A stretch of 64,000 bases of DNA from an uncultured delta proteobacterium (lineage in GTDB: Bacteria; Desulfobacterota; Desulfobacteria; Desulfobacterales; B30-G6), in NCBI GenBank assembly GCA_963823335.1, contig CAWGLD010000005.1, positions 192,001 through 256,000 on the forward strand, given 5' to 3'. A model generated the notes under the pieces. It did no database searches and was not told the origin of the DNA. It worked only from the letters and a program-made list of their open reading frames with translations. Below are positions 33,585 through 63,777 of this stretch, piece by piece (position 1 is the first letter of the stretch; each line of letters starts with the position of its first letter). Made by a program: the position numbers and the translations under genes.

Positions 33585-34373
33585 ATGAAAAAGCAGGATA
33601 ATGGCAAAAATTCAAGCCGGCTGATTTCCCTGGCCGCTTCCATAACTGAAACCCTTTTCGCTTTGGGCTTAGACGACCGAGTGGTTGGCGTAACGGATAC
33701 CTGCGATTACCCTCCCAAAGTTTCGGATCTGCCGAACATCGGCTGCTGGTTCGAACCAAACTTGGAGACGCTTTACAGCCTAAAGCCGGACCTGGTCATT
33801 GGTTTGGAGACCGCCCATAGCGAATTGGCTGTACCGCTGAAACAAGCCGGTATCGGATTGAAGCTGATCAACCCGACAACCGTAGACCAGGCGATTGGAG
33901 TAATCGCCGAACTTGGAAGTTTTCTGGGGGCTGGCGAGGCAGAAATAATAGTGGATAGATTGAACACAAGGCTTAAGGCTTTGGACAACTCTGTTGCCAA
34001 AATACGTCGCTGTGACAGATTAACAACCTGCCGGATTCTTGAATTTGACGCAGGAGAGGTTTACGTGGCCGGCCCTTTGTCTTTCCAATACGACATTATC
34101 AGGCGGGCGGGTGGGATCAATGTCACCTCGGCACTGGTTGAGGCCTACCCGCGTATACTCCTGGAACAGCTTGTCGAACTTGACCCGAGTTTTATTTTTT
34201 ACTGCGGGTACAACCTGGATTACTTGGATAAAATGATGGGGAATCCGACCTGGCGTTCGATGCGTGCTGTTGAAACAGGTCGGGTTTATCGCTTTCCCTG
34301 CGAGTTGACCTGCCGTTTTGGACCCCGTATTGTGGATATGACCGAATTGCTTTATCAAAGATTGTATATCTGA
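33585..34373 (+). CDS. BtuF-like cobalamin/helical-backbone metal-binding protein (no obvious signal peptide)
   Basis: RLISLAASITETLFALG, VVGVTDTCDYP, LKPDLV, RFGPRI. Confidence 0.8.
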   Translation: MKKQDNGKNSSRLISLAASITETLFALGLDDRVVGVTDTCDYPPKVSDLPNIGCWFEPNLETLYSLKPDLVIGLETAHSELAVPLKQAGIGLKLINPTTVDQAIGVIAELGSFLGAGEAEIIVDRLNTRLKALDNSVAKIRRCDRLTTCRILEFDAGEVYVAGPLSFQYDIIRRAGGINVTSALVEAYPRILLEQLVELDPSFIFYCGYNLDYLDKMMGNPTWRSMRAVETGRVYRFPCELTCRFGPRIVDMTELLYQRLYI

Positions 34374-34476
34374 AACTGAACCTATTTGGTGTTACCCGAC
34401 AACCCGGATAGTCGTTTATACTTTGATCTGCCAGGCTAAAAAGGGAATATTAGGAAATATACACAAGGAGGGTATT

Positions 34477-34842
34477 ATGACAAAACTCACTGACGAAGCT
34501 AAAAAGGCTATTGGCGAAATTCGCCCATCGTTGGTTGCTACGGCAAGCAGGACAGGAAAACCAAATGTCTCCGCTAAAGGGTCGTTTCGTGTTCTGGATG
34601 ATGAAAACGTTATATTTGCAGACATAGCGTCTCCCCGAACTGTCGCCAACATCAGGGAGAATCCCCAGGTGGCCATTATCTGCTTGGACGCTGCGACGCG
34701 AAAGAGCTGCCGGATTTGGGGGAAGGGCAGTATCCTCACCTCAGGCGAACTCTTCCAACAATTAGCCGCTGAATATGCCAAGAAGAACATGGAAGTGAAA
34801 AATGTGGTAAAAGTGGCTGTGGAGGAGGTTGAGACCTTTTAA
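34477..34842 (+). CDS. Pyridoxamine 5'-phosphate oxidase-family FMN-binding protein
   Basis: VATASRTGKPNVSAKGS, TVANIRENP. Confidence 0.85.
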   Translation: MTKLTDEAKKAIGEIRPSLVATASRTGKPNVSAKGSFRVLDDENVIFADIASPRTVANIRENPQVAIICLDAATRKSCRIWGKGSILTSGELFQQLAAEYAKKNMEVKNVVKVAVEEVETF

Positions 34843-35649
34843 ATGGCCAGACTGGGGATAATTGCCTGCCAAATCCTTGAGCTTGAGTTAGCCCATCTGC
34901 TTGTCAATGACATCGAGGTATTCGGTATTACCGTACTTGATAACGGTTTTGGCGATGGATTTTTTCGAGCGCTGAAACAGAAAGGGGAGAAAGCACTCAG
35001 GCTCACCGGAGACACGGGGAAGTATCTATCGCTCGAACCAGATCAGCTTGAGGTTGTTGTTCAGATCATGGAGTTAGGCCTGCACACGGTAATCAGAGCC
35101 CTCCGAACAACTGTGATCGATGCAGTGTCGGAGATGAGCACGCACGTGGATGCAATAGTGCTCGGGTATGGTCTGTGTGGGAATGCGCTCGACAATCACC
35201 AAGAGATCATCAGGGATATCGATATCCCCCTATTCATGCCCATGGATGAGGATCATACTGTGGACGACTGTGTCGGGCTTATCATTGGCGGACGCAAGGC
35301 TTATTATGAAGAGCAGTGCAAAATTGCCGGCACTTTTTTTATGAATGCCGGTTTTTCCCGTCATTGGAAGGACCTTTTACAGAAAGCGAATGCGGTTAAG
35401 TTTGATGAGGCGATGTCCAAGCGTATCATGGCGGGATATGAGAGAAGTCTTTTGCTGATCACGCCGGTTCTTTCCGAAGAGGAGATGGCTGCCAACATAG
35501 AAGATTTCAATCAAACATATGGACTGCGGACCGAGGTTCGTAAGGGAACGCTGGAGATTCTCGAGAGAACGTTGGTCAGGGGAAAGAATTTCGTATTGAA
35601 AAAAGGCGATAACCAGCATACTGATCGCGAAAAAAGAGCGAAAACTTAG
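34843..35649 (+). CDS. DUF1638 domain protein
   Basis: IIACQIL, LGLH, LGYGLCGN, DDCVGLIIGG. Confidence 0.8.
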   Translation: MARLGIIACQILELELAHLLVNDIEVFGITVLDNGFGDGFFRALKQKGEKALRLTGDTGKYLSLEPDQLEVVVQIMELGLHTVIRALRTTVIDAVSEMSTHVDAIVLGYGLCGNALDNHQEIIRDIDIPLFMPMDEDHTVDDCVGLIIGGRKAYYEEQCKIAGTFFMNAGFSRHWKDLLQKANAVKFDEAMSKRIMAGYERSLLLITPVLSEEEMAANIEDFNQTYGLRTEVRKGTLEILERTLVRGKNFVLKKGDNQHTDREKRAKT

Positions 35650-35829: not shown

Positions 35830-36180
35830 TTAAAAATTAAAAACCTTTCCCTCAGCAATCAAATCGATTAGGTGAGGTGCGCCGTCCAGCAGCATATTGG
35901 AAAAAAACTTGGCCTCGTCCACCTGACGAGCGTTTGCGCACGGCGGTCAGACACCTATGGGAACTTCATTTTCGACCAAATAGGGTAAGTAATCATCGGG
36001 GCAGTCACCGGTAACGCTCTTTTCTTTGAAGTCGCGGGTGTTATCGGCCCACTTGACGCCATCCTCGATCAGGAAGATATTTACATTGTGCCCCTTTTCA
36101 TGGGTAAATTTTGCGAATTGAAAACATCTTGTGGCCAGATTGACATCATTCTTGCTGAGCGTGTATACAAAATTTGCCAT
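35830..36180 (-). CDS. DsrE-family selenoprotein (116 aa, UxxC: V-U-P-P-C)
   Basis: IFLIEDGV DsrE motif; in-frame TGA at 35949-35947 followed by PPCANARQV...GKVFNF*, completing the fold; SECIS-like hairpin. Confidence 0.9.
35914..35930 (-). promoter_or_regulatory. Bacterial SECIS-like hairpin for the DsrE UGA
   Basis: mRNA CUCGUC-AGGUG-GACGAG; loop starts 23 nt after UGA. Confidence 0.75.
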
Positions 36181-36265
36181 TCCACACCTCCTCTAATGAG
36201 ATATATTCGGTTCCATCGTTTTGGCCCTTTATCCTGTTTCCGGGAGCTAACATCCCTAGCAAGGT

Positions 36266-36778
36266 TCAAAGTTTCTGTTGACGGATCCCTGAGTAAACAG
36301 CTTTGCAGATTTCCGAAATACCTCCCTTTAGACCATCAGGGTTTTTGAATCCCTCGGTTCTTTTCAGGCTTTCAATATAGCCCTCTGCGGTTAAAAAAGA
36401 TTTGAGTCCATGCTCATCCGGCTCATCCGGTTTGATTTGGAACACCCAGCCCTCACCATATGGATCCCGTGATATGAGGGGCACATTCAGTTTTGAACTG
36501 TGGTTGAAATGGATGTGTCCGGAAAGAGGGGCATCAATATATTGGATTTTTCCGGTGATGCAAAAAATGACTGTTTGGCCCCTGGGGACGTGTTGCCCAT
36601 CCGATACAAGCCAGTCCAGATCGTTGATGCCCCCGGCCAGAACCAGGGAGGGTTCCGTGAGCCCGAAGACGATGAATTCTTGATTCGATTTGGCCCATAA
36701 TCCCTGCTTCCCAAAATAGCCTCGATCGCCCGGGACGCTTACACGTTTTCCCAAAAATTTTTCAATGACAGCCATCAA
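36266..36778 (-). CDS. Glycine cleavage H-like protein (divergent)
   Basis: FGLT, APLSGHI, DPYGEGWVFQIK, LTAEGY; C-terminal extension with Cys. Confidence 0.7.
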   Translation of the reverse strand: MMAVIEKFLGKRVSVPGDRGYFGKQGLWAKSNQEFIVFGLTEPSLVLAGGINDLDWLVSDGQHVPRGQTVIFCITGKIQYIDAPLSGHIHFNHSSKLNVPLISRDPYGEGWVFQIKPDEPDEHGLKSFLTAEGYIESLKRTEGFKNPDGLKGGISEICKAVYSGIRQQKL

Positions 36779-37010
36779 ATCCTCCTAAACCCATGACACT
36801 AAAATCTTTCATGGTGCTAGTTGATCATTAATGTCCTGTGTTGTTATCAGAAGATTATGTGTTGTAGAAAATCGTTTTACAAGCATTATTTTATAGTAAG
36901 AAGGAAGAAACCTCGAAACTGAAAATGCCACGAAAAGAGTATTGATATCTTGAAAAGACCATTGTAACAATACGCATCTTATTTTCATTGTGGCTGAAGG
37001 TGTTTTCAGG

Positions 37011-37961
37011 ATGAGTAAAATCCGGCGATATATTTATCAAACCCAGGGTGTCTGTCCCCCGGAAATTCATTTCCAGGTAAAGGACGCCATTCTTGAAAGT
37101 GTTCGTTTTGTTGGTGGAGGTTGCCCAGGGAATGCCCAACTTGTAGCGCGTCTGCTGGAGAGGAGGCCTATTGCCGAGGTGTTGCCGATCCTAAACGGGA
37201 TCGAGTGCAGCAAAGGAACATCATGCCCGGACCAGTTGTCAGAGGCAATAAGAAGGATGCAGCGCGGAGATCTCCGGCCGACTTCTTCCTTTCGTGTGGA
37301 GCAAGACTTGTCCTCAGAAAAAATGATCGGTCTCATCGGTGACCTAAACGGTGATCACCGGGTACTGCAACAGTTGATCGGATCAATGGCGGCATGTGGC
37401 GTTGAAGCGATTTTTTGCGCCGGTAACCTGACCGGTCCGGAAAAGGCAGATCGAAAGCTGATCAAGGAGATCGACGAAAAGGGTCTTCGGGCCATTACGG
37501 GAGACAGGGACTGGACGTATGCATGTGAAATGGAAGCGGCGAAGTTTCCGTTCATAGACAATAAAACTAGGGATTTTCTCGTCCGCCTACCTCAGGTGAT
37601 CAGCTTTCGCATAGGGGACAGAAATGGCGTGTTGTTTTTCGGCGATTATCTCCAAAGCATGTCGGGATATTCTGATTTTGAACCGTACGCACTGGAAATC
37701 AATATGGTTTGCGGCTTAACGGATTTCATGCGGGACGAAAGCGTATTCCCGGCACTGGAGGCCATGACCCCGCAGTTTCGAGCGGATATCATCGTATTCA
37801 GCCAAACCGGAAGATGGGGACATTGGCACGTGGCTGGCAAAGATTTTATCGGTCTGGGGCCCGCTGTCGGTATGGACGGCATGGCATGGGCGAGCCTGGA
37901 AATCAAATCCGGGGAGTTGAAATTTTCTAAAATAGTCACCAGTAACGCAGGCGGAGTCTAA
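37011..37961 (+). CDS. TSCPD-domain (TIGR03905-like) protein fused to a degenerate calcineurin-like phosphoesterase
   Basis: GVCPPEI, GGCPGN, TSCPDQL; then IGDLNG / AGNL / TGDRD resembling metallophosphoesterase motifs. Confidence 0.75.
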   Translation: MSKIRRYIYQTQGVCPPEIHFQVKDAILESVRFVGGGCPGNAQLVARLLERRPIAEVLPILNGIECSKGTSCPDQLSEAIRRMQRGDLRPTSSFRVEQDLSSEKMIGLIGDLNGDHRVLQQLIGSMAACGVEAIFCAGNLTGPEKADRKLIKEIDEKGLRAITGDRDWTYACEMEAAKFPFIDNKTRDFLVRLPQVISFRIGDRNGVLFFGDYLQSMSGYSDFEPYALEINMVCGLTDFMRDESVFPALEAMTPQFRADIIVFSQTGRWGHWHVAGKDFIGLGPAVGMDGMAWASLEIKSGELKFSKIVTSNAGGV

Positions 37962-37962
37962 T

Positions 37963-38271
37963 ATGGTAGAACTTGTTCTTGTTGATGTGCTGCTAACCGA
38001 TTTCAATCAATGAATCGCCTGTGTCTATATGGCAGAATCGGTAAAGGTTTTACCGGAAGATATCAAGGCGATTATCGACGTTTATGAGTGGGATATGCGT
38101 ACACGTGAGGGTGTACAGCGCTTTAAAGAACTGAAAGCCAAATCCTTGCCGAGTGTCGCCCTGGACGGGAAACTGGTCTGGGAGTCCATTATTCCCATGC
38201 AGGAAGAAATCATTGCCAAAATTCAGGATCTTTACCGCCAAAAGAGTCAAGGAGTTTTAGATGCATCTTGA
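37963..38271 (+). CDS. Thioredoxin-fold selenoprotein (U-I-A-C-V-Y-M)
   Basis: ATG 37963 MVELVLVDVLLTDFNQ-TGA(38011)-IACVYM runs in frame into ORF 38029; aligns with paralog 53079 (DVLTLDSVQCAACGYM). Confidence 0.88.
38039..38055 (+). promoter_or_regulatory. SECIS-like hairpin
   Basis: CGGUAAA-GGU-UUUACCG; loop 32 nt after UGA. Confidence 0.7.
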
Positions 38272-39241
38272 AGATGTGAATATAGAGGGGTTTAAATCAT
38301 TTTCCGAAGAAACCAACATGAGCTTCCAGCCGGGAATTGGTGTGATTATCGGCAATAACGGTGTGGGGAAGTCAAACATTCTGGACGCGATCGTGTGGGC
38401 GATGGGGGACAATGATCTGAATCGTATTCGCTGTTATGAGCAGGATGAGCTGTTTTTTGCAGGGAGTAAAGATTATCCGCCGGCATCAAGTATACGTGTA
38501 GAACTGAACCTGAAAGAGAGTCAGGAAAAGGACGCTGTTGGAATCAGGTTGGCGCGCGAAATGAACAAAGAGGGCCGTAATCGGTATTATATACAGGAAA
38601 AATCGTGTGATTGGGGCCTGTACAAACAGAATATTGATCGATACCATCTGGCTCATGCACTGAAAACAATTATTCGTCAGGAACACATCAACGACCTGCT
38701 TCGGCTAGATCCCCTGGAACGGGTTCAGTCGATTGGTGAACTGTTAGACAAGAAAGAGGACAATGAGGTGATTGTCCATTTACAGCAGAAAGTCGATCCC
38801 ATTTTCAAACGGTATATGTCCTATCTCATGCCCTCGGCCCATGTGGCCCTTCTCACACCGGAGTTTGACGGGAAGTTTGGAATGGATGTTGAAGTGATGC
38901 TGTCCGGCAACCGCGTGCGTCGTGTGCACCAGCTTTCAGGTGGTGAAAAAGCCGTAACCAGCCTGGCAATTAAGCTGGCCCTGTTTCGCGGGCTTGAAAG
39001 CCCCTTTTATCTGCTCGATGAAGTGGAACCCTCCCTTGACTACACCAACCACAAGTCCATGCAGGCTTTTTTAAAGGACGTTGCTTCCGAGAAACAACTG
39101 ATTATGATTACCCACCTACGCAGCACCATGGAGTTGGCCAACACACTTCACGGGGTACGCACCCGCTGGGACGGATCTTCATTCATGAAGTTCTATTTTG
39201 TTATGGAAGAAAGACTTTTAAGACTCTACAAGTGTTGCTAG
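38261..39241 (+). CDS. Short SMC-family ABC ATPase (head domains only), C-terminal CC
   Basis: GFKSF, GNNGVGKSN, LSGGEK, LLDEVE, ITH; only 326 aa, no long coiled coil or hinge. Confidence 0.8.
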   Translation: MHLEDVNIEGFKSFSEETNMSFQPGIGVIIGNNGVGKSNILDAIVWAMGDNDLNRIRCYEQDELFFAGSKDYPPASSIRVELNLKESQEKDAVGIRLAREMNKEGRNRYYIQEKSCDWGLYKQNIDRYHLAHALKTIIRQEHINDLLRLDPLERVQSIGELLDKKEDNEVIVHLQQKVDPIFKRYMSYLMPSAHVALLTPEFDGKFGMDVEVMLSGNRVRRVHQLSGGEKAVTSLAIKLALFRGLESPFYLLDEVEPSLDYTNHKSMQAFLKDVASEKQLIMITHLRSTMELANTLHGVRTRWDGSSFMKFYFVMEERLLRLYKCC

Positions 39242-39361: not shown

Positions 39362-40300
39362 ATGCTAACGGAAAAAATCCTCAAGGGGGATATAAAAGCT
39401 GCTGCGCGGTTGATGCGGGATATTGAAGACGACATTCCGGAAACGCACCATGAGCTCAAGCGCTTGTTAGCACATACCGGAGGCGCCCACATCATCGGTC
39501 TGACCGGTGCACCTGGCACAGGCAAATCCACGTTGATAGACAGCATGATCCACCTTCTGCGGAAGGAGGGAAAAAGCGTCGGTATTTTGGCCATCGATCC
39601 CACAAGCCCTTTGTCCGGCGGGGCCATCCTGGGCGATCGTGTGCGCATGCAAAGACATGCCGAGGATAAAAGCGTGTTCATCAAGAGTATTGCCACCCGG
39701 GGTCAATTAGGTGGCCTCGCGCGATCTGCCTTTGGTATCGTTTCGGTCCTGGATGCCATGGGCAAGGATGTAATCCTTGTCGAAACCGTTGGTGTCGGCC
39801 AGGATGAAGTGGATGTCATGCGCCTGGCCCACACCACAATCGTGGTTGTCACGTCGGAAATGGGTGACGGTATTCAGGCTATAAAATCCGGCATATTGGA
39901 GATTGGCGATATCTTTGTTCTCAACAAGGCCGACCAGATGGGCTCGGATACAACACCGAATAAAATCAAGATGATGCTCAACATGCGACAACTCCGGAAA
40001 GGTGCCTGGAATCCTCCGGTTGTGCAGACCATTGCTATTCGTGGTCAAGGTGTCGATGAGCTGCTGCGGCAGGCGCAAAAGCATCTTGTTTTATTAAAGA
40101 CCCAAGGACTGGATCAATTCCGAAAACAAAAGGCGCTTGCCGAACTCACGACCCACTTAAAAACTATTCTGGTTGAGCGTGCCTTATCGACCTTGGAACT
40201 CAAAAATGAGTGGCAAACGATAATTGACGGTATCGTCAAGGGTGAAATCGATCCCTGCAGTGCCGCAGAAGAACTTGTATCTGAACTATTGAAAAAATAA
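39362..40300 (+). CDS. meaB: MeaB/ArgK-family GTPase metallochaperone
   Basis: GAPGTGKST, DPTSPLSGGAILGDRVRM, ETVGVGQ, NKAD. Confidence 0.9.
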   Translation: MLTEKILKGDIKAAARLMRDIEDDIPETHHELKRLLAHTGGAHIIGLTGAPGTGKSTLIDSMIHLLRKEGKSVGILAIDPTSPLSGGAILGDRVRMQRHAEDKSVFIKSIATRGQLGGLARSAFGIVSVLDAMGKDVILVETVGVGQDEVDVMRLAHTTIVVVTSEMGDGIQAIKSGILEIGDIFVLNKADQMGSDTTPNKIKMMLNMRQLRKGAWNPPVVQTIAIRGQGVDELLRQAQKHLVLLKTQGLDQFRKQKALAELTTHLKTILVERALSTLELKNEWQTIIDGIVKGEIDPCSAAEELVSELLKK

Positions 40301-54040: not shown

Positions 54041-54286
54041 ATGAAAGTTGAAGTTTTGGGACCGGGATGCAAACGATGTGAAAAACTTTACACCAACACG
54101 ACCGAGGCTGCATCGGCTTTCAGTGCCTCAAACACGATTGAGGTTGTAAAGGTGAAAGACATAAAATATTTTGCAAAAATGGGGGTATTCATGACGCCCG
54201 GGCTAGTTATCGACGGTGAGCTTATTTCAACCGGAAAAGTGTTATCCCCCGAAGAAATCAAAAAGAAAATTGAGGAGAAAATGTGA
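54041..54286 (+). CDS. MTH895/TM0996-like small redox-active disulfide protein
   Basis: VLGPGCKRC, GVFMTPGLVIDG. Confidence 0.88.
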   Translation: MKVEVLGPGCKRCEKLYTNTTEAASAFSASNTIEVVKVKDIKYFAKMGVFMTPGLVIDGELISTGKVLSPEEIKKKIEEKM

Positions 54287-56291: not shown

Positions 56292-56316
56292 AATAGTCAT
56301 AAGAGGAGGCAGCCGA

Positions 56317-57462
56317 GTGAAAGCACCGAAACCATTGACGCCAAACTCACCGGTCAAACTGATATTTACCGGTGGATTTCTAGGAACGGGCAAAACCACA
56401 GCCCTTGCAGTATTGGCAAGAGAACTCATCGGTCAGGGTAAACGGGTCGGAATTATAACCAACGACCAAAGCGAAAACCTGGCGGATACGATCATTGTCA
56501 AGCAGTTACTCGGCGAGTTGGGTGTGCCGGTAGAGGAGGTTGTTGAGGGTTGTTTCTGCTGCAAATTCGATGAGCTTATCGATCAGATGGAGAAAATTCT
56601 CGTACACAAACCGGATGTCCTGATGGGTGAACCTGTGGGGAGTTGTACCGATTTTGTCGCGGCGGTTGCCAACCCCATAAAGATTCATTACAGGGATGCT
56701 TTCAGATTCGCACCATTTTCAACCATGGTAGACCCTGTTCGGGTTGGGGAATTTCTGATGGAGGACACCCAGACGACTTTTCCAGAGGAAGTGTCCTATC
56801 TTTTTCGCAAGCAGCTGGAGGAAGCGGACCTGATTGTGCTGAACAAGATCGACCAGTTATCCGATCCGGAAAGAGAGCGGCTTGTGGACGTTCTCAAGAA
56901 AAACTATCCTAAAAAGGAAGTGATGCCTGTGTCGGCAAAATACGGAAACGGTATGTCCGAATGGCTCGATGTCTTGCTTTCCGGAAGCCCCGGTGCGGAC
57001 ACGGTTTTGCATGAAATCGACTACGATCGTTATGCCAGAGCCGAGGCAGTGCTGGGATGGCTCAATGCTGCCGTAAAAATTACCGCCGACCGGTCGTTCG
57101 ATTCCGCAGTATGTTTGCGGGATCTGGCAGTAAAGTTAAGAGATGCCTTCCGGGAGATAAATGCCGGTATCGGCCATATAAAAATTGTCATGACCAGTGC
57201 CGGAAAATCCATGTGGGTCAATCTTACCCACCTGGCCGCCGAACCGATGCTCAGCGATAAACAGCTGGGAGATATCCCCGGGGGCAGTCTCATTGTCAAC
57301 GCCAGGGTTCAGATCGTTCCCGAGGTACTGGAAACCATCGTGCGCAGCGCCATTGAAGAGACATCCGTTTCACAAGGCTTTCGATGGGAAATCATCGACC
57401 TGCAATGCTTCAGCCCGGCATATCCTAACCCGCCTTACCTGGTTCGTGAAGAAAGCGTCTAA
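56317..57462 (+). CDS. CobW/COG0523-like GTPase
   Basis: GGFLGTGKTT, NDQ, GCFCC, EPVGSCTD, NKID; GTG start after GAGGAGG. Confidence 0.85.
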   Translation: MKAPKPLTPNSPVKLIFTGGFLGTGKTTALAVLARELIGQGKRVGIITNDQSENLADTIIVKQLLGELGVPVEEVVEGCFCCKFDELIDQMEKILVHKPDVLMGEPVGSCTDFVAAVANPIKIHYRDAFRFAPFSTMVDPVRVGEFLMEDTQTTFPEEVSYLFRKQLEEADLIVLNKIDQLSDPERERLVDVLKKNYPKKEVMPVSAKYGNGMSEWLDVLLSGSPGADTVLHEIDYDRYARAEAVLGWLNAAVKITADRSFDSAVCLRDLAVKLRDAFREINAGIGHIKIVMTSAGKSMWVNLTHLAAEPMLSDKQLGDIPGGSLIVNARVQIVPEVLETIVRSAIEETSVSQGFRWEIIDLQCFSPAYPNPPYLVREESV

Positions 57463-57496: not shown

Positions 57497-57790
57497 ATGA
57501 AAGAGATAGAAAAAATCCATCTCGAAGTACTGCACGAAGGTGCGCATTGAATCCCCTGCGAATACATGACCAGGGTGGTCGAATCTGTGGCGCCGGATTT
57601 TGGTGAGCGTTTGCAATGGGAAAAAGTCGTGACCAAAGAAATGAAAGGTGCCTTGAGGTACGGAGAATTATCAAAAAGCATCGGGCGCCCGGCGCCTGTT
57701 CCCTCTATCTTTATCAATGGAAAACTGGTTTTTGAACAGACGCCGAGCACTGAGGATCTTGCGGGGTTCCTGGAAAAACTGGTTGTTTGA
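57497..57790 (+). CDS. Thioredoxin-fold selenoprotein (U-I-P-C-E-Y-M), 97 aa
   Basis: MKEIEKIHLEVLHEGAH-TGA(57548)-IPCEYM in frame with ORF 57566-57790 (APVPSIFINGKLVF); aligns with paralog 60170 (YCLPCFYM). Confidence 0.9.
57568..57580 (+). promoter_or_regulatory. SECIS-like hairpin
   Basis: GACCA-GGG-UGGUC; loop 22 nt after UGA. Confidence 0.6.
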
Positions 57791-58467: not shown

Positions 58468-59967
58468 TCATGAATCCAAATCGAGGAGTTCGAGTGCAGC
58501 GTCGGTTGGAGACATTCGACCCTCTTTTACGGCGCCGGTCAGTTTCAGAACCTTGGTTTTAGATCGTTTGTAAAACCGCTCTTTTAAACCTTCTTCCACA
58601 AGCGACCACATCCAATTTACGGATTGCCGGCGTCTTTTCTGTGAAAACTCACCCGATGCTTCCATTCTGGATCGGTAGTCCGAAATGGCCTGCCATATGT
58701 CGATGATGCCGTCCATGTTTTTTGAACTGCAGGTGAGAACCGGTACTTTCCATGCCGGGGACTCCTGTTTGACGATGCTCAGTGCGGATTCATAAATTTT
58801 TTTTGCTTCCCTGGCTTTTTCAATGTTGTCCCCATCGGCCTTGTTGATGACGATGGCATCCGCCAGTTCCAATATGCCTTTCTTGATCCCTTGAAGTTCG
58901 TCTCCTGCACCGGTGATCATCAACATCAGAAAAAAATCGACCATTGATGCCACATGTGATTCCGACTGACCGATACCCACGGTTTCCACCAGCAAGATTT
59001 CATATCCTGCAGCCTCGCAGATGACCATACTTTCTTTGGTTTTTTTTGCGATGCCGCCTAAAGTGCCGCCGGAGGCAGAGGGGCGGATAAATGCGTTCGG
59101 ATGGCCCGAGAGCCGTTTCATTCGGGTTTTGTCTCCTAGAACACTACCTCCGGTTTTCGAACTGCTGGGATCTACCGCTAGAACCGCCACACGATGCCCC
59201 ATATCGGCGAGCATTGTCCCGAAACTTTCTATAAATGTACTTTTACCTGCACCTGGAACGCCTGATATGCCGATGCGTAAAGCTTTACCCGATAAAAGCA
59301 GCAGTTGTTCGATAAGTTGGTCGGCTACCTGGCGATGTCCGGCCCGAGTGTCTTCAATGAGGGTTATGACCTTGGCGATAACCGCCCTGTCCCCGGCAAC
59401 GACGCCATCGATACATTGTCTCAGCTCAGGACGGGTTTGTTTTCTTTCCTCTAAATGGTAGAGTAATCGAGATAACCCCGATACTATATCATGACCAATA
59501 TCCAGGACTTCGTCGAAGCCGAATTCCTGATGTTTGTTTTCGACTTCCTCAAAGGCCTGCTTCCAGGCGACATTTAAAATTTTGCCACCCGATGCAACAG
59601 AAACAGCTTCCACCAGTCGGGTGACGGATGATTCCGATAGTTTGTAATCGAACGGAAACAGGACAGCATGGACATCGTTCTCAACGGCAGCTCGGGCTGT
59701 TTGTCCATGGGGAAGCCCTCCGGGATGGATATCCACGTCAAACCCCCACTGGGAAAAGGCGGTGGGAACGAGATTGTCAATACGGTTCGCGCTATTTGAT
59801 ACAATGCCACAAAGAAGAATTCTTGGCCGGCGCCCCATCCTTTGTTCGAAAAGGTCCGTTCTCCGGTTGAGAGTATGAGAGATGGTGTTGTCCAGAAGAA
59901 TGCTTTTAAAGCGTGCGAACAGGTTTCGGTTCCCAGGTCGCGTTTTATTTGCTTGGATTTGGCGCAT
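58468..59967 (-). CDS. Fusion of a degenerate methylmalonyl-CoA-mutase-type B12-binding domain with a MeaB GTPase
   Basis: N-term GRRPRILL..GFDVDI..AAVENDVH (lacks DxHxxG); C-term GVPGAGKST, DPSS..GGSVLGDKTRM, ETVGIGQ, NKAD. Confidence 0.8.
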   Translation of the reverse strand: MRQIQANKTRPGNRNLFARFKSILLDNTISHTLNRRTDLFEQRMGRRPRILLCGIVSNSANRIDNLVPTAFSQWGFDVDIHPGGLPHGQTARAAVENDVHAVLFPFDYKLSESSVTRLVEAVSVASGGKILNVAWKQAFEEVENKHQEFGFDEVLDIGHDIVSGLSRLLYHLEERKQTRPELRQCIDGVVAGDRAVIAKVITLIEDTRAGHRQVADQLIEQLLLLSGKALRIGISGVPGAGKSTFIESFGTMLADMGHRVAVLAVDPSSSKTGGSVLGDKTRMKRLSGHPNAFIRPSASGGTLGGIAKKTKESMVICEAAGYEILLVETVGIGQSESHVASMVDFFLMLMITGAGDELQGIKKGILELADAIVINKADGDNIEKAREAKKIYESALSIVKQESPAWKVPVLTCSSKNMDGIIDIWQAISDYRSRMEASGEFSQKRRRQSVNWMWSLVEEGLKERFYKRSKTKVLKLTGAVKEGRMSPTDAALELLDLDS

Positions 59968-60169: not shown

Positions 60170-60508
60170 ATGGGAAACGGAAATAAAATTCTACTGGAAG
60201 TGATGTACAAGGCAAGTTATTGCCTGCCCTGTTTCTATATGGATGAAACCGTACTCGAAATTCTCCCGCAATATGCAGATCAGGTGGAGTATCGTCGGGT
60301 GGAATTCATGAAGGGAAGTGGAAAGAAACGCTTTTTCGAGTTGTCTTACGCACTTTTCGGAAAGGAAAACGTCCACAAATATGCCCGTGTGGCACCTGTC
60401 CCCTCACTGTTTATCGATGGTGAACTGGTTTTCGATGCCATTCCGCCCATGTTCGAACTGGAAGAGGCGATTCTTGAGGCATTGGAAAAAAGGGGAATTG
60501 ATACTTGA
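60170..60508 (+). CDS. Thioredoxin-fold protein (C-L-P-C-F-Y-M)
   Basis: LLEVMYKASYCLPCFYM, APVPSLFIDGELVFDAIP. Confidence 0.82.
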   Translation: MGNGNKILLEVMYKASYCLPCFYMDETVLEILPQYADQVEYRRVEFMKGSGKKRFFELSYALFGKENVHKYARVAPVPSLFIDGELVFDAIPPMFELEEAILEALEKRGIDT

Positions 60509-60512: not shown

Positions 60513-61031
60513 TTATTTTTCGATGCCGACGCGTGCCTTTACACCGCTCTGATAATAGTGCTTACGGGCTTTCATCTGGGTCACCGTATCTGCATTTTCG
60601 ATTACGCGAGGTGACGCATAGCGCCCGGTGATGATCAATTCCAGAGAATGGGGTTTGTTGATAATTAATCCCAGGAGATCGTTTGCGGCAATTAATCCGA
60701 GTCTGACGGCCACGGTGATTTCATCCAAGACCATCATGTTATATTTGTTTTCAGCCATGATGGTCCTAACCCGTTTTAACCCGATCTGGGCCGCGAGAAT
60801 ATCTTCGGGTTTGGGGTTCCTGTCGGTAAACGTTCCGAGACCGTATTGCTCTACCGTTATTTGGTCGCTGAGTCTTCTGAACGCTTTGATTTCACTATAC
60901 TCCCCTTTTTTTACAAACTGTGCGAAAAATATCTTGAAGCCTGAGCCTGCAGCCCTTATGGTCAGACCTATGGCTGCTGTTGTTTTCCCCTTGCCATCAC
61001 CTGTGAGAACATGTACATAGCCCTTAGACAT
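60513..61031 (-). CDS. cobO: ATP:cob(I)alamin adenosyltransferase (CobO/BtuR type)
   Basis: TGDGKGKTTAA, QFVK, LDE, ITGR, KHYY..G..AR.GIE. Confidence 0.9.
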   Translation of the reverse strand: MSKGYVHVLTGDGKGKTTAAIGLTIRAAGSGFKIFFAQFVKKGEYSEIKAFRRLSDQITVEQYGLGTFTDRNPKPEDILAAQIGLKRVRTIMAENKYNMMVLDEITVAVRLGLIAANDLLGLIINKPHSLELIITGRYASPRVIENADTVTQMKARKHYYQSGVKARVGIEK

Positions 61032-62487: not shown

Positions 62488-63128
62488 TCAAAAATGTTTG
62501 GGTGCTGGGTGCGGGAAAATTTGGTCTTAAAGCGGTTGAGCGGGTCAAACAGATGCACCCGGAGGTGGATTTAACCGTTATTGATATAATAGAGCATCCC
62601 GGGTCGATGCTTTCAGCCCATGGCGTGGTGTATGTTCGCAGAGACGGGATCGAATTTCTCGATAAGAAGCTGTTAGAAACCGGAGGACCGGATTGGATTA
62701 TTCCGGCCATTCCGGTTCATGTAGCCTGTGAGTGGATAAAACGCAGGCTGTCCTCGATCCGTGCTGTTCAGAACATGAATCTGCCCGAACGGTTAGCAGA
62801 CCTGCTCCCCAACACCTTGCAGGGAACACACGGGGAATTGTACAGCAGCATGGCCGATTTTTTATGTCCGGACGACTGTATCGAACCCTATGGCATTTGT
62901 ACAATTACAAATGAGAAAAGGGCTTATCGGCTATACGATTTGCTGTCATCGATTCAGCTCGAGCCCTACAAAACAGTGGTTGTCAAAAGTCGGCAGATAT
63001 GTGCCGGTGTCGGGGGGTATCGGCCGGCTGACTTAATCGGCACCCTGGAAGATATCCGGCGGTATGACGCACCCATATTGTTGAGCACATCCTGTAAATG
63101 CCATGCGGTAGTAAGTGCTTTTCAGTAG
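62484..63128 (+). CDS. Hypothetical Rossmann-fold protein with Cys-rich C-terminus
   Basis: LGAGKFG, IIPAIPVH, CPDDCIEP..C, GVGGY, TSCKCH. Confidence 0.65.
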   Translation: MIKNVWVLGAGKFGLKAVERVKQMHPEVDLTVIDIIEHPGSMLSAHGVVYVRRDGIEFLDKKLLETGGPDWIIPAIPVHVACEWIKRRLSSIRAVQNMNLPERLADLLPNTLQGTHGELYSSMADFLCPDDCIEPYGICTITNEKRAYRLYDLLSSIQLEPYKTVVVKSRQICAGVGGYRPADLIGTLEDIRRYDAPILLSTSCKCHAVVSAFQ

Positions 63129-63261
63129 ACCCCATAGTTGCATAAACAACATGGCAAAGTATAGATAATAAGCTGTTATTATATACAATACCGTTGCGAT
63201 AGCGCCATTCTTTTGCAACACTGGGGTAGATTGTCCGGTCCAGGACATCTGACCTGGATAT

Positions 63262-63777
63262 CTATTTTTCGATACCCTTCCTTGCCGGAACACCTTTCTG
63301 GTAATAGTGCTTTATCTCTATCATCTCGGTAACAAGATCGGCTGCCTCCATGACGACAGGTGCCGCCCCCCTTCCCGTGATCACCAGCTCAATTTCATTG
63401 GGTTTGGCGGCAATAAGATCGAGAAGACGCTGGACGTCGAAAAGCCCGCAGGCGGTTGCCACGTTGCCCTCCTCGATGATGATTAGGTCGTATTTGCGGG
63501 AGAGAAGGACACGTTCTATACGCTCTAGACCGGCCTGCGCAGCATCGACCTCATCCTGGGGTGGTTTGTCCTTGATAAAATGACCAAGACCATACTGTTC
63601 GACACTAATGAGATCGGAAAATTTGGCAAGCGTTTTTATCTCGCTGTAATCACCCTTTTTCAGAAACTGGGCGATGAATACTTTCAGGTCAGCCCCGGCG
63701 GCGCGTATGGCTAAACCTATCGCTGCTGTGGTTTTCCCTTTACCGTTTCCCGTGTATATCTGTACAAATCCCTTCAT
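63262..63777 (-). CDS. cobO: ATP:cob(I)alamin adenosyltransferase (second paralog)
   Basis: YTGNGKGKTTAA, QFLK, ITGRGA, KHYYQKGVPARKGIEK. Confidence 0.9.
   Translation of the reverse strand: MKGFVQIYTGNGKGKTTAAIGLAIRAAGADLKVFIAQFLKKGDYSEIKTLAKFSDLISVEQYGLGHFIKDKPPQDEVDAAQAGLERIERVLLSRKYDLIIIEEGNVATACGLFDVQRLLDLIAAKPNEIELVITGRGAAPVVMEAADLVTEMIEIKHYYQKGVPARKGIEK

Follow-up and report, generated by a model that had tools for sequence, protein, structure and literature searches.

The window, a 64,000-nucleotide stretch of DNA from an uncultured delta proteobacterium, carries between positions 36990 and 61031 a gene block that constitutes one conserved and probably inducible system of marine sulfate reducers. 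We read it as a corrinoid methyl-transfer system of Desulfobacterota, in which a UroD/MtaA-family selenoprotein (Sec-UroD) acts as an MT2-type enzyme reduced by its own thioredoxin, and we put the probability of this reading at roughly 0.45. The block unites an MtrH-type enzyme, an MtaA-type enzyme with a His-Cys-Cys site, a corrinoid protein, RACo and a divergent MtaA-family enzyme with a Phe-Cys-Sec site. Accompanying this last enzyme are its dedicated CxxCxYM thioredoxin and a GTPase of COG0523 that bears the motif GSIFCVC.

In the proposed mechanism, the Sec enzyme would be an MT2-type methyl-cobamide:sulfur/selenium methyltransferase, the bacterial counterpart of methanogen MtbA/MtaA. The thioredoxin CxxC, docked on the Cys/Sec site, would reduce either the site or a bound sulfur/selenium substrate, at every turnover or after oxidation, and would be fed by the TrxR-like flavoprotein; the GSIFCVC GTPase would load the metal. 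MtrH, via the shared corrinoid protein, would link this chemistry to methyl-H4folate and the Wood-Ljungdahl pathway, with the most likely net flow running from small methyl-sulfur or methyl-selenium compounds to H4folate. Acetyl-CoA synthase, a marker of the pathway to which a first-pass annotation of the region had already tied the genes, was found in the genome.

Gene content and conservation of the region

Every family named in the first-pass annotation was recovered in its place between 33.5 and 63.8 kb using Pfam and NCBIfam: MtrH, two MtaA/UroD proteins, a corrinoid protein, RACo, DUF1638, DUF2284 and a V4R/PAS two-component system, with an accessory set of a TrxR-like flavoprotein, three CobW, two MeaB, two CobO, BtuF, DsrE and a GcvH-related protein. 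Six thioredoxin folds are present, four of the [C/U]xxCxYM type (37963-38271, 53079-53468, 57497-57790 and 60170-60508) and two of the MTH895/ArsE type (54041-54286 and 57787-58056). The core, 41464-58365, lies wholly on the + strand.

33549..34373, +, BtuF-like periplasmic binding protein, edge gene (Pfam Peripla_BP_2; weak BtuF match)
34843..35649, +, DUF1638 protein (Pfam DUF1638, 1.1e-34)
35830..36180, -, DsrE-like selenoprotein, U-P-P-C motif (Pfam DsrE for the part before the UGA at 35947-35949)
36266..36778, -, GcvH-related protein (NCBIfam NF045810, 248.7 bits; cut-off 150)
36990..37961, +, TSCPD-domain protein, first gene of the conserved block (Pfam TSCPD; NCBIfam TIGR03905)
37963..38271, +, thioredoxin-like selenoprotein, UIACVYM motif (translation; weak NF047660 match; UGA 38011-38013)
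38261..39241, +, SMC_N/ABC-type ATPase (Pfam SMC_N, 1.3e-43)
39362..40300, +, MeaB-type GTPase, MeaB1 (TIGR00750, 315.9 bits)
40318..41364, -, CobW/COG0523 GTPase 1, GCICC motif (Pfam cobW and CobW_C; motif)
41464-41997, +, first V4R-type small-ligand-binding protein (Pfam V4R)
42031-42633, +, second V4R-type small-ligand-binding protein (C-terminal Cys motif common to both)
42524-44857, +, PAS histidine kinase (Pfam)
44769-45512, +, LuxR-type response regulator (Pfam)
45754..46710, +, MtrH-family methyl-corrinoid:pterin methyltransferase (Pfam MtrH, 1.6e-50; PDB 6SJ8, 8.9e-36)
46756..47808, +, MtaA1, MtaA-type UroD-family methyltransferase (PDB 4AY7, 2.5e-48; NF004889, 233.7 bits)
47881..48540, +, corrinoid protein (Pfam B12-binding, B12-binding_2)
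48674..50734, +, RACo-type reductive activase of corrinoid proteins (Pfam RACo_C_ter, 6.9e-93)
50758-51156, +, DUF6951 protein (Pfam)
51104-51742, +, Cys-rich DUF2284 protein (Pfam)
52017..53051, +, Sec-UroD, UroD/MtaA-family selenoprotein, motifs F-x-C and APGUDMP (UGA 52950-52952; SECIS hairpin 52966-52982)
53079..53468, +, CxxCxYM thioredoxin (CAACGYM), partner of Sec-UroD (adjacency, homology to fused domain, complex model)
53603..53905, +, small probable zinc-ribbon protein, two Cys pairs (sequence)
54041..54286, +, MTH895/ArsE-family thioredoxin-like protein (TIGR00412, 79.9 bits against a cut-off of 62)
54290..55324, +, CobW/COG0523 GTPase 2, atypical GSIFCVC motif, the GSIFCVC CobW of the first-pass annotation (Pfam; motif)
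55368..56291, +, low-Mr thioredoxin-reductase-like flavoprotein, CSIC redox motif (TIGR01292, 233 bits, under the cut-off of 343)
56230..57462, +, CobW-like GTPase 3, GCFCC motif (Pfam cobW; motif)
57497..57790, +, thioredoxin-like selenoprotein bearing the HUIPC motif (NF047660, 151.8 bits against a cut-off of 105; UGA 57548-57550)
57787-58056, +, second MTH895/ArsE-type thioredoxin (Pfam/NCBIfam)
58063-58365, +, TPR protein (Pfam/NCBIfam)
58468..59967, -, MeaB GTPase with N-terminal B12-binding-domain-like region (NF006958, 461 bits; NF006944 over residues 25-176)
60170..60508, +, CxxCxYM thioredoxin, CLPCFYM (NF047660, 73.4 bits, under the cut-off)
60513..61031, -, ATP:corrinoid adenosyltransferase CobO, end of the conserved block (Pfam, 8.4e-58)
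61183-62487, +, OYE flavoprotein (Pfam)
62484-63128, +, protein with no assigned family (ORF beside the OYE gene)
63262-63813, -, second CobO, CobO2 (Pfam)

The MtrH gene is the sole copy in the genome, and the matching PDB entry 6SJ8 is a methylcorrinoid:tetrahydrofolate methyltransferase. MtaA1 has the canonical zinc motif H-x-C ... C (HICG and PGCD). Because the cluster has MtrH together with two UroD enzymes and no MT1 of the MttB, MtmB or MtaB type, sequence does not reveal whether either UroD enzyme serves as MT1 or as MT2. The DUF1638 protein is likely a helper of corrinoid reactivation; the mec preprint ties MecG/MecH to that process. In four estuary RNA libraries, contigs at least 95% alike cover 22-29 of the 30 bins of 41400-60600, which indicates presence in RNA libraries only.

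The block is syntenic across several Desulfobacterota orders, but the left and right edges are not. Its synteny is kept in 10 genomes from 9 families (40-kb regions), and named loci with the block belong to Desulfobacterales, Desulfatiglandales, Desulfobaccales, Syntrophobacteraceae, Desulfarculaceae and Desulforhopalus. The 10 regions contain the SMC_N/ABC-type ATPase, CobW 1, the PAS kinase and the LuxR regulator 8 times each, each V4R-type protein 7 times, the TSCPD gene 6 times, and the MeaB of 58468-59967 and a CobO homologue 4 times each. Across 39 loci, DUF6951 and the GSIFCVC CobW each occur in 36, the thioredoxin at 54041-54286 in 34, the TrxR-like flavoprotein in 33, DUF2284 in 30, the small two-Cys-pair protein in 27, CobW 3 in 17, the second MTH895/ArsE thioredoxin in 16 and the TPR protein in 10. 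Thioredoxin, TrxR and CobW genes are thus syntenic with the methyltransferases in many relatives.

The first-pass annotation had treated the whole region as one functional set. This holds for the core, whose order is conserved, but not for the DsrE, GcvH-related, BtuF, MeaB1 and CobO2 genes. Of the 39 loci, 4 have a BtuF homologue no more than 10 kb from the core, 5 a GcvH-related gene near it and 1 a syntenic DsrE; OYE, the 62484-63128 protein and CobO2 are sporadically syntenic (3, 3 and 4 of 39), and MeaB1 had no orthologue in the fetched regions of relatives. Since DsrE, GcvH-related, BtuF, PNPOx, MeaB1, OYE and CobO2 are seldom or never beside the core in relatives, they should carry no argument. 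DUF1638 homologues (42-48% identity) are found in two of the ten 40-kb regions, and a DUF1638 gene is also part of a cluster of the UroD-thioredoxin fused type (L154).

These outer genes are what would be expected if a methyltransferase operon merely lay beside unrelated redox and B12-handling operons. For the core, such a chance neighborhood is already contradicted, and we give it almost no credence: the TSCPD-to-CobO order is repeated over families and orders, so that the arrangement is beyond chance, and a UroD-thioredoxin fusion and a docking model (below) also speak against it. The system is patchy, since in the order sample two genomes of the window's own genus (G159 and G198) hold only a second clade of the Sec enzyme and a third (G263) has none.

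Selenocysteine and the Sec-UroD enzyme

The four in-frame UGA codons claimed earlier were confirmed, in the genes for DsrE (U78), the thioredoxin at 37963 (U17, 38011), UroD (U335, 52950) and the HUIPC thioredoxin (U18, 57548), and the genome encodes the complete Sec machinery (tRNA-Sec or selC, SelA, SelB and SelD) that the claim calls for. A fifth UGA reading, at 53555, was unconvincing, since 53603 is the likelier start of the small two-Cys-pair gene. Read-through of the DsrE-like gene yields 116 aa, and its single orthologue among the fetched loci likewise has TGA; this UxxC selenoprotein family is already listed in PMC13188914. The UIACVYM thioredoxin has TGA in 28 of 28 orthologous matches (some genomes counted twice) and a downstream hairpin (z -3.4). 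Matches to the HUIPC thioredoxin divide into 17 TGA and 1 TGC, and the CLPCFYM thioredoxin has a Cys codon in 27/27.

By the pattern of its codons, the second UroD-family protein of the cluster is a selenoprotein not listed before. The TGA is in frame in all 79 named loci whose alignment spans the site, and in every full-length orthologue of the order sample, where 49 of 301 genomes (30 of 155 genera) gave a match. No variation occurs at third codon positions +17 to +29 in 76/76 distinct sequences, exactly across the SECIS hairpin (stem AUGUUCC/GGAACAU, three-base loop, mostly GGU), and flanking third positions vary freely. Database entries are cut off after 311 aa, where the TGA lies. In four longer ones, of 341-344 aa, Cys takes the Sec position (APGCDMP), and full-length Cys-form homologues are rarer than TGA forms.

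The alignment of Sec-UroD with MtaA spans the whole protein (4AY7, E 7.7e-21) and sets FFICG opposite LHICG, so that in its Phe-Cys-Sec set Phe replaces the His zinc ligand and Sec the C-terminal Cys ligand. A second clade, 66-71% identical, occurs in the window's own genome and seven others, in the order GntR-CP-MtmB-like-UroD(Sec)-Trx-CobW(-MttB). In the nearest relatives outside (36-38% identity), UroD proteins of 458-539 aa, a CxxCxYM domain forms the C-terminus; these thioredoxin-fused relatives have the F-x-C form, and distant ones H-x-C.

An obligate thioredoxin partner

The first-pass annotation had the Sec-thioredoxins and DsrE carry or reduce a released thiol or selenol. Rather than a loose carrier, the CxxCxYM thioredoxin is an obligate partner of the Sec enzyme, on the basis of adjacency, fusion and a docking model. 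The CAACGYM thioredoxin adjoins Sec-UroD in 39/39 loci of 15 kb or more. In other phyla it is fused to UroD; one fused-type protein cluster bears both names, 'uroporphyrinogen decarboxylase family' and 'thioredoxin family', and residues 373-450 of one such protein (P0130) are 40% identical to the window's thioredoxin (BLASTP, E 5e-13). The complex was modelled with P0026, a Cys-form orthologue sharing 80% identity with the window's enzyme, standing in as chain 1, and it scored 0.84, the best of three controls reaching 0.00. The mark for this score is reached by 116/157 solved complexes and 2/215 mismatched pairs, counts that are only rough because own alignments were used. Runs share at least 97% of contacts, with a partner pLDDT of at least 87. 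On the enzyme side the modelled interface takes in the Cys ligand (233-235) and Cys/Sec site (312-313), and on the thioredoxin side residues 12-19, including Cys17, and 22-23 (YM). We infer that the thioredoxin CxxC docks on the Cys/Sec site, although the model does not distinguish among per-turnover reductant, repair factor, substrate and metal ligand.

The thioredoxin could itself be the methyl substrate or carrier, with a CxxC Cys, its persulfide or perselenide, or a thiol completing the metal site accepting or donating the methyl group. The small thioredoxins would then be protein-borne coenzyme M analogues or sulfane-sulfur handlers, and the TrxR-like enzyme would free methanethiol or methylselenol from the methyl-(per)sulfide. 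In the model Cys17 faces the enzyme Cys and Cys/Sec residues at the barrel mouth, the binding place of the thiol substrate in MtaA; a partner needed stoichiometrically at every turnover is suggested by the fusion, and loss of the His ligand tracks thioredoxin presence. We nonetheless consider this reading rather unlikely. No precedent of a methylated thioredoxin is known to us, a Cys thioether is not resolvable by a second Cys, and the chemistry is beyond the reach of the complex model. The DsrE-like selenoprotein and GcvH-related protein nearby would suit it, but they are seldom syntenic.

Methyl flow and comparison with known systems

As stated in the first-pass annotation, the substrate cannot be read from the sequence, and the same applies to the direction of methyl flow. 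The demethylating role proposed there fits as one role, not the sole one. The UroD(Sec)-Trx-CobW triad also accompanies MtmB/MttB-type enzymes in clusters and genomes lacking MtrH, and therefore looks like an MT2-type methyl-corrinoid:S/Se methyltransferase. Together with its thioredoxin, the Sec enzyme may supply the second step so far missing from the breakdown of methyl compounds in bacteria. The neighbours of fused UroD-Trx forms are MttB, MtmB, a corrinoid protein, RACo, CobW and a BCCT transporter, and a homologue of the GSIFCVC CobW is found in second-clade and fused-type clusters. No Pterin_bind or MtrH family occurred among the 55 ORFs of four MtmB/MttB-type loci, and MtrH matched in none of five genomes (95-99% complete) where the order sample showed only the second clade. 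In these clusters Sec-UroD would thus act on the methyl-corrinoid side, in an MT2-type role, although the clusters could still use a pterin methyltransferase encoded elsewhere, e.g. the Wood-Ljungdahl one.

Alternatively, the Sec-UroD/thioredoxin enzyme could represent a methyl-corrinoid:H4folate methyltransferase of a new type, as it is the sole MT2 candidate in MtmB/MttB-type clusters and H4folate is the usual methyl acceptor in bacterial systems. In the trimethylamine system of deltaproteobacteria, the second methyltransferase is described as uncharacterised by Kivenson et al. (PMC8318568). A new H4folate enzyme is very unlikely, however: a true MtrH stands beside Sec-UroD in the window, the conserved Cys/Sec and docked CxxC point to thiol chemistry, and characterised UroD-family methyltransferases use a zinc-thiolate site and heteroatom substrates, according to PMC10418091.

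The flow could also be reversed, from methyl-H4folate through MtrH and the corrinoid protein to sulfide, selenide or a metalloid such as arsenic, in a B12-dependent methylation or volatilisation whose oxidatively methylated product the thioredoxin system would reduce. MtrH reactions are reversible, and the Sec enzyme of MtrH-less clusters must pass methyl groups onward. The cluster has two MTH895/ArsE-family thioredoxins, NCBIfam NF041536 describes DUF2284 fused to arsenite methyltransferase selenoproteins, and in vitro the related ClMlp2 transfers methyl groups from methylcobalamin to selenide and sulfide (PMC10418091). Yet neither resistance nor transport genes for arsenic, mercury or selenium turn up in the block by Pfam and NCBIfam, the window's matches to the NCBIfam ArsM/DUF2284 and MbdU models are far under cut-offs, and a two-component system with V4R sensors suits a catabolic substrate equally, so we regard reverse flow as fairly improbable.

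No characterised system matching this gene content came to light, in agreement with the first-pass annotation, and no description of the cluster in the accessible literature. The type 1 mlp clusters, tied to methyl-selenium use (PMC10418091), suggest selenium salvage from dimethylselenide or methylselenol for the host's large selenoproteome. UroD-family MtaA homologues, a corrinoid protein and a RACo-type activase in the cluster, and Sec machinery and many selenoproteins in the genome, are consistent with this. In that source, however, type 1 clusters are said to have no H4folate methyltransferase, their sites are His-Cys-Cys except in several Mlp1, and Desulfo- taxa, CobW and MtrH go unmentioned, 'thioredoxin' appearing only in a reference title. 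By these descriptions the window, with MtrH and Phe-Cys-Sec, does not fit the type 1 clusters, and salvage is unlikely.

The mec cassette resembles the window in gene content (several UroD-superfamily proteins, an MtrH-type MTII, corrinoid protein, RACo, partner protein with no assigned function and two-component system), and mec-like cassettes exist in marine settings. A relative acting on dichloromethane or another halomethane is highly improbable, though. By Pfam, the window's kinase has PAS domains without PocR and the block has no MecJ-type antiporter; thioredoxin, CobW and Sec features are absent from mec descriptions, on which this comparison is based. According to the mec authors, moreover, homologues above 35% identity are confined, among public genomes, to dichloromethane/chloroform degraders, whereas the window's cluster is common in Desulfobacterota.

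The selenocysteine-containing MtaA relative

The genome comprises 4.37 Mb in 11 contigs, and the window is G000:C5:192001-256000 in our coordinates. When the ORFs from 29.8 to 63.8 kb were scanned with Pfam and NCBIfam, all the families named in the first-pass annotation were found, at the places where it had put them. Its observations were thus confirmed. Its interpretation, a single pathway demethylating a small methyl donor with the aid of selenocysteine (Sec) thioredoxins, was only partly supported and has been sharpened. Judged from sequence comparison, the heart of the region is probably a Sec-containing, thioredoxin-dependent enzyme of the MtaA family, which recurs as a module in different corrinoid methyl-transfer clusters. 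The genes to which we refer most often are as follows.

Main genes of the region
37963-38271, [C/U]xxCxYM thioredoxin fold, motif UIACVYM (Sec)
39362-40300, MeaB1
40318-41364, CobW1
45754-46710, MtrH
46756-47808, MtaA1, the first UroD protein
52017-53051, Sec enzyme, the second UroD protein (UGA at 52950-52952)
53079-53468, TrxC2, [C/U]xxCxYM thioredoxin fold, motif CAACGYM
54041-54286 and 57787-58056, MTH895/ArsE-type thioredoxin folds (NCBIfam)
54290-55324, CobW2, COG0523 GTPase
55368-56291, thioredoxin reductase (TrxR)-like flavoprotein
56230-57462, CobW3
57497-57790, [C/U]xxCxYM thioredoxin fold, motif UIPCEYM (Sec)
58468-59967, minus strand, MeaB2
60170-60508, [C/U]xxCxYM thioredoxin fold, motif CLPCFYM

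The region thus holds six small thioredoxin-fold proteins, four with the [C/U]xxCxYM motif and two of the MTH895/ArsE type. The TrxR-like flavoprotein scores 233 bits against the TIGR01292 cut-off of 343 and has a CSIC redox motif, and the GcvH-like gene scores above the NF045810 cut-off.

The Sec enzyme can be aligned from end to end with MtaA, a methylcobalamin:coenzyme M methyltransferase of known structure (4AY7, E 7.7e-21); MtaA1, likewise aligned over its full length, is nearer to it (E 2.5e-48). Both UroD proteins exceed the Pfam URO-D cut-off, and both fall below the 235.4 cut-off of the MtaA/CmuA model TIGR01463, at 205 for MtaA1 and 116.7 for the Sec enzyme, which is matched only by general models in NCBIfam release 20. 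According to the accessible text of PMC10418091, the zinc ligands of UroD-family methyltransferases are a His and two Cys residues. MtaA1 has the canonical motifs HICG and PGCD; where MtaA has LHICG and APGCG, the Sec enzyme has FFICG and APGUD, so that its predicted ligand set has Phe for His and Sec for the last Cys.

The four genes in the region said to require UGA as Sec were borne out by translation, and the machinery for Sec insertion is present, since tRNA-Sec, SelA, SelB and SelD were all found in the genome. SelD (G000:C5:144246-145172) is a selenoprotein as well, its gene having a single in-frame TGA; that gene is on the window's contig, about 47 kb upstream of where the window starts. 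Of the 120 close homologues of the Sec enzyme listed from the protein database, nearly all stop at 311 aa, exactly at the TGA, so that, among the matches listed, the active-site end of the enzyme is hidden by the annotation; four of the entries (P0026, P0079, P0111 and P0119), 341-344 aa long, have APGCDMP opposite the window's APGUDMP. The TGA is present in 79/79 named loci whose alignment covers the site. Among 301 sampled genomes of the window's order, every full-length orthologue has one in-frame TGA, and the only full-length matches without it are relatives of 36-38% identity.

Downstream of this UGA, at +16 to +32 nt, lies a hairpin with a 7-bp stem and a loop of three bases, mostly GGU. 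Across 76/76 distinct sequences its third codon positions do not vary, with the third positions on either side freely variable, and such frozen synonymous sites over a hairpin constitute a bacterial SECIS signature. When single sequences were folded downstream of the four UGAs, only the one at 38011 scored significantly (z -3.4; the others, z -0.5 to +0.4), and that of the Sec enzyme gene was not significant on its own. The SECIS case for the UroD gene comes from the synonymous-site comparison, which was made for this gene only among the four. UGA opposite Cys, a conserved hairpin and the insertion machinery were each found, and the Sec enzyme gene is a selenoprotein gene.

For the two thioredoxin-like selenoproteins, in counts that include some genomes twice, orthologous hits keep TGA in 28/28 cases for UIACVYM and 17/18 for HUIPC (the eighteenth has TGC), and the Cys-codon paralogues keep Cys in 85/85 (TrxC2) and 27/27 (CLPCFYM). 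The gene at 57497-57790, with the motif AHUIPCEYM, scores 151.8 against the cut-off of 105 of the HUIPC model NF047660, and its three [C/U]xxCxYM paralogues score 33-73 bits, under the cut-off. For the DsrE-like gene with a U-x-x-C motif only one orthologue was found; U-x-x-C DsrE-like proteins are a selenoprotein family in the review PMC13188914. Reading a further UGA as Sec, at 53555, would lengthen the small Cys-pair protein in the upstream direction; this was dropped because the resulting N-terminus is implausible. Two thioredoxin genes end in TGA (53466-53468 and 38269-38271), each with TAA or TAG within a few codons, and there we read TGA as a putative stop.

Extent and distribution of the cluster

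For synteny, the window's proteins were mapped on 40 kb around the Sec enzyme orthologue in 10 genomes of 9 families. A long gene order recurs: TSCPD, Trx(Sec), SMC_N-type ATPase, CobW1, V4R, V4R-like, kinase and regulator; then MtrH, MtaA1, corrinoid protein, RACo, DUF6951, DUF2284, UroD(Sec) and TrxC2; then the small Cys-pair protein, MTH895-type Trx, CobW2 and TrxR-like. It continues less regularly with CobW3, the second MTH895-type Trx, TPR, MeaB2, TrxC4, HUIPC Trx and CobO.

Neighbours of the Sec enzyme up to 10 kb away, counted in 39 loci each 15 kb or longer (some low counts reflect the 10-kb limit)
TrxC2: 39/39
DUF6951: 36/39
CobW2: 36/39
MtaA1: 35/39
MTH895-type Trx: 34/39
TrxR-like: 33/39
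corrinoid protein: 32/39
RACo: 30/39
DUF2284: 30/39
MtrH: 24/39
GcvH-related: 5/39
BtuF: 4/39
OYE: 3/39
DsrE: 1/39
PNPOx: 0/39
MeaB1: 0/39

Gene order and neighbour counts together delimit a conserved unit of about 36990-61031. The first-pass annotation had treated a longer region as one system; this stands for the conserved unit, and the edges at 33549-36778 (left) and 61183-63813 (right) are part of this genome's neighbourhood and lie outside the system. The same data bear on the notion that the cluster is about B12 trafficking only. Genes for MeaB, CobO, BtuF and CobW are present, as that notion would have it, but they are the least syntenic, and we have rejected it as the main reading. Upstream of 29 kb lie unrelated genes, for an aldehyde oxidoreductase, UbiD, an enzyme of the xanthine-dehydrogenase type accompanied by YqeC and MobA-like genes, and transporters. 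Operon structure was judged by strand and short gaps only, as a promoter and terminator scan of 44000-63900 was uninformative (23 and 23 sites against 24.2 and 22.0 expected).

Several genes in and around the unit deserve a brief description. The V4R proteins, kinase and regulator upstream of the core suggest induction by a small molecule. One ORF there, 42031-42633, has no Pfam match; it is 62-75% conserved in relatives, its 3' end and the start of the kinase ORF share 110 nt, and it shares a C-terminal Cys-x-Gly-Asp-x-x-Cys-x-Phe motif with the adjoining V4R protein. The shared motif and the conservation make it a likely second V4R-type sensor. A trio at 36990-39241 travels together in relatives, in some of them on the opposite side of the core: a TSCPD protein that weakly matches a metallophosphoesterase, the UIACVYM Sec thioredoxin and an ATPase of the SMC_N/ABC type. 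The N-terminal ~150 residues of MeaB2 match the B12-binding C-terminal part of methylmalonyl-CoA mutase, and no catalytic subunit of the mutase was found within the window. Outside the unit, at 7175-23071, lie the genes of a molybdenum hydroxylase of the xanthine-dehydrogenase type (FAD subunit 7175-8056, large subunit 8520-10799), with YqeC (19159-19962) and two MobA-like genes nearby. We take YqeC to be a marker of the selenium-dependent molybdenum hydroxylase trait; if that is right, this would be a second selenium-linked feature of the window.

The cluster is widespread. Matches to the Sec enzyme at E 1e-60 or better were found in 49 of the 301 sampled genomes of the order (30 of 155 genera), and 221 stretches with a gene for a relative turned up among species-representative genomes. 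The best 80 of these 221 were analysed; they come from metagenome-assembled genomes of Desulfobacterales, Desulfatiglandales, Desulfobaccales, Syntrophobacteraceae, Desulfarculaceae and Desulforhopalus, and from Desulfatitalea alkaliphila M08but, Desulfospira joergensenii DSM 10085 and the Olavius Delta 1 symbiont. At least one cultured carrier, D. alkaliphila M08but, has the whole core (locus L076). In a phylum-wide sample, 11 of 401 genomes matched at E 1e-40 or better, the window's own included. Estuary metatranscriptome contigs from four runs, at least 95% alike, cover 22-29 of the 30 bins of 41400-60600, which demonstrates only the presence of near-identical sequence in RNA libraries; some bins are uncovered (e.g., 51656-52296 in three of the four runs), which is no evidence of absence.

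The thioredoxin partner and a proposed methyl-transfer role

An exhaustive search of 1.84 billion representative proteins showed the Sec enzyme family to be isolated: beyond a Cys form of 60% identity, the figure drops to 36-38% for the next full-length relatives. Several of the latter are 458-539 aa long and have a C-terminal domain with a CxxCxYM motif, the motif being found in seven of the 75 representatives of at least 300 aa. Among these 75, near relatives have F-x-C-G and distant ones the canonical H-x-C-G. TrxC2 aligns with residues 373-450 of one fused relative, P0130 (40% identity, E 5e-13), and one fused cluster, from Thermotogota, is named both "uroporphyrinogen decarboxylase family protein" and "thioredoxin family protein". 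The fusions come from the exhaustive search; a word-based search for longer thioredoxin-holding proteins returned one protein of 261 aa and no fusions. Natural UroD-CxxCxYM thioredoxin fusions are found in loci L153-L157 (genomes G282 and G256) and in the database proteins P0130, P0132, P0134 and P0135. Such fusion argues for a close, stoichiometric role of the thioredoxin.

A complex was also modelled from residues 1-95 of TrxC2 and P0026, a Cys-form stand-in 80% identical to the window's enzyme. The model scored 0.84, against 0.00 for the best of three controls; in calibration, 116 of 157 solved complexes but 2 of 215 mismatched pairs attain this mark, figures that apply only roughly here because we supplied our own alignments. 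Contact agreement between runs was at least 97%, and the pLDDT of the partner at least 87. On the enzyme side, the modelled interface includes residues 233-235, with a Cys ligand, and 312-313, with the Cys to which the window's Sec corresponds; on the thioredoxin side, it includes residues 12-19 (with the first CxxC Cys), 22-23 (YM) and 61-63. Since the only solved sequence relative is MtaA alone, the result is unlikely to be recall of a solved complex. As a prediction rather than a measurement, the model supports binding of TrxC2 to the Sec enzyme.

The triad of Sec enzyme, thioredoxin and CobW also occurs in clusters without MtrH. The window's genome has a single MtrH and a second copy of the Sec enzyme, 69% identical and also with TGA, on contig 7 (G000:C7:360000-394999, loci L143 and L144). 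Its neighbours are a GntR/UTRA regulator, a corrinoid protein, MtmB- and MttB-family proteins (both non-Pyl), a GltD-like flavoprotein, a B12-radical-SAM protein and a protein with a methionine-synthase activation-domain match, with a RACo gene 11 kb away. Seven other genomes with this second clade (Sec enzymes 66-71% identical to the window's) have the order GntR, corrinoid protein, MtmB-like, UroD(Sec), CxxCxYM thioredoxin and CobW2-like, often with MttB. In relatives this cluster adjoins the histidine-utilisation genes for urocanase and histidine ammonia-lyase, which hints at demethylation of an N-methylated histidine derivative. Fused UroD-thioredoxin genes occur in two further genomes of the order, in one cluster with MttB, MtmB, corrinoid protein, RACo, CobW and a BCCT transporter (of the quaternary-amine type), in another with a further UroD gene, corrinoid protein, RACo, CobW, DUF1638 and a TRAP binding protein.

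By Pfam, neither a pterin-binding family nor MtrH was found in the 55 ORFs of four loci of the second-clade and fused types, and the MtrH family was found in none of the five genomes, 95-99% complete, whose order-sample search gave the second clade only. In the methanogen scheme, the corrinoid protein takes its load from an MT1 (MtmB or MttB) and is relieved of it by an MT2 of the UroD family. This scheme leaves the Sec enzyme as the sole MT2 candidate in the second-clade and fused clusters. For marine Deltaproteobacteria, the accessible text of PMC8318568 describes the second methyltransferase of the trimethylamine system as uncharacterised, with MtbA not found; we suggest that a UGA-truncated gene could have been overlooked in that way.

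We propose methyl transfer by the Sec enzyme, with the corrinoid protein on one side and a sulfur or selenium atom on the other. This chemistry is suggested by the modelled reach of the thioredoxin CxxC to the Cys/Sec pair and, in the accessible text of PMC10418091, by the action of characterised UroD-family enzymes on heteroatom substrates at a zinc-thiolate and by the soft ligand set that accompanies S or Se substrates. TrxC2 and the TrxR-like flavoprotein would reduce the Cys/Sec pair after oxidation, or take part in every turnover. CobW2 belongs to COG0523, which we take to be metallochaperone GTPases, and would be the metal-loading factor of the Sec enzyme. A shared corrinoid protein would join MtaA1 and the Sec enzyme to MtrH, which resembles the solved methylcorrinoid:tetrahydrofolate methyltransferase 6SJ8 (E 8.9e-36), and the genome encodes an acetyl-CoA synthase. 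Our preferred reading is a net flow from methyl-S/Se compounds to H4folate; the reverse direction is also possible. Loci L123, L125, L133 and L140 have the Sec enzyme, thioredoxins, CobW2 and usually TrxR, with no corrinoid protein, RACo or MtrH nearby.

To a bolder reading we give roughly one chance in five: that F-x-C UroD proteins with their CxxCxYM thioredoxins are the missing MT2 of many bacterial corrinoid systems, operate by a new mechanism and provide a methyl-S/Se route. Sec forms in Desulfobacterota and Cys or fused forms elsewhere would then share one role. A docked thioredoxin Cys, or its persulfide or perselenide, and the Cys/Sec pair would replace the zinc/coenzyme M chemistry of the methanogens' His-Cys-Cys site, methyl being given to or taken from S/Se in a cycle driven by thioredoxin reductase.

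Significance and comparison with known systems

Consumption of methanethiol and dimethylsulfide in anoxic sediments is commonly attributed to sulfate reducers, and our literature search found no paper naming the enzymes for it. The cluster offers concrete candidates for two gaps, these enzymes and the second methyltransferase of deltaproteobacterial methylamine use. If the bolder reading is true, it would give sulfate reducers a route from methanethiol and dimethylsulfide, or their Se analogues, to the Wood-Ljungdahl pathway. The enzyme would add a selenoprotein family, of the UroD/MtaA type with Sec at a predicted metal-ligand position, and its pairing with a thioredoxin, drawn from fusion, adjacency and the docking model, is a directly testable biochemical hypothesis. 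Entries for PF01208, uroporphyrinogen or methylcobamide are absent from the table of the 2026 selenoproteome review (PMC13188914), and the main text of the BSepDB paper does not mention such a selenoprotein. In the accessible text of the Olavius symbiont selenoproteome paper, "uroporphyrinogen decarboxylase" has 0 occurrences, and such a selenoprotein is named in none of the 12 methyltransferase-related passages covered, out of 13. Full-text searches of accessible papers found no description of the cluster. The selenoprotein family, absent from the lists searched, and the enzyme-thioredoxin pairing, of which no description was found, both appear new.

The HUIPC-motif family NF047660 is credited in PMC13188914 to Haft and Tolstoy 2025, a paper that may bear on the neighbourhood of the HUIPC gene. 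The product of 57497-57790 belongs above its cut-off, and the three paralogues match it weakly and share the [C/U]xxCxYM motif. The family is catalogued as a selenoprotein only, and a link to UroD by fusion or docking is absent from the accessible texts, that source paper aside.

The first-pass annotation had likened the core to the mec cassette (bioRxiv 10.1101/2021.08.30.458270; PMC9768040). The list of families is indeed similar in the accessible text of these sources: an MtrH-type MTII, several UroD-superfamily proteins, a corrinoid protein, a two-component system, and RACo with a partner of uncharacterised function. The likeness fails elsewhere, as mec is described there with the PocR kinase MecA and the MecJ antiporter, and without Sec or genes for thioredoxin, TrxR or CobW, whereas Pfam found only PAS, HisKA_3 and HATPase_c, and no PocR, in the window's kinase and no cation antiporter family in the 40 ORFs scanned. 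The mec hosts named there are Dehalobacterium formicoaceticum, 'Ca. Dichloromethanomonas elyunquensis', 'Ca. Formimonas warabiya' and Dehalobacter strains.

Type 1 mlp clusters (Kountz and Balskus, PMC10418091) encode at least Mlp2 and Mlp3, according to the accessible text, which also cites the Sdm dimethylselenide system of Methanococcus voltae. Both resemble the window's cluster, as there described, in having several MtaA-like UroD proteins, a corrinoid protein, an activase, Sec-using anaerobic hosts and a proposed S/Se methyl chemistry. A corrinoid protein as well as a Ram/RACE activase is found here too, and MtaA1 has the His-Cys-Cys site, which the Sec enzyme lacks. In contrast, type 1 mlp is described there without an H4folate methyltransferase and with His-Cys-Cys sites, while the window has MtrH at 45754-46710 and a predicted Phe-Cys-Sec site. 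That accessible text has no Desulfo- taxa, CobW or MtrH, uses "thioredoxin" in a reference title only, and describes no Sec in the enzyme and no thioredoxin partner. Judged by their published descriptions, both mlp and mec differ from the window's cluster.

Bacterial three-component methyltransferase systems, such as that for glycine betaine in Desulfitobacterium hafniense (MtgB, MtgC and MtgA), share an MtrH-like MT2 (6SJ8), a corrinoid protein and RACo with the window, but the block here lacks an MttB-type MT1 and contains two UroD enzymes, of which one has Sec, besides a large set of proteins for thiol redox and metal delivery. The methanogen enzymes MtaA, MtbA and MtsA are alike in their full-length matches and in a context of corrinoid protein and activase, and their MT1-corrinoid protein-MT2 scheme is mirrored by the MtmB/MttB, corrinoid protein and UroD enzyme of the paralogous clusters. 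Here, in contrast, the host is bacterial, the predicted metal site has Phe for His and Sec for the last Cys, and the Sec enzyme is paired or fused with a thioredoxin and accompanied by a COG0523 GTPase.
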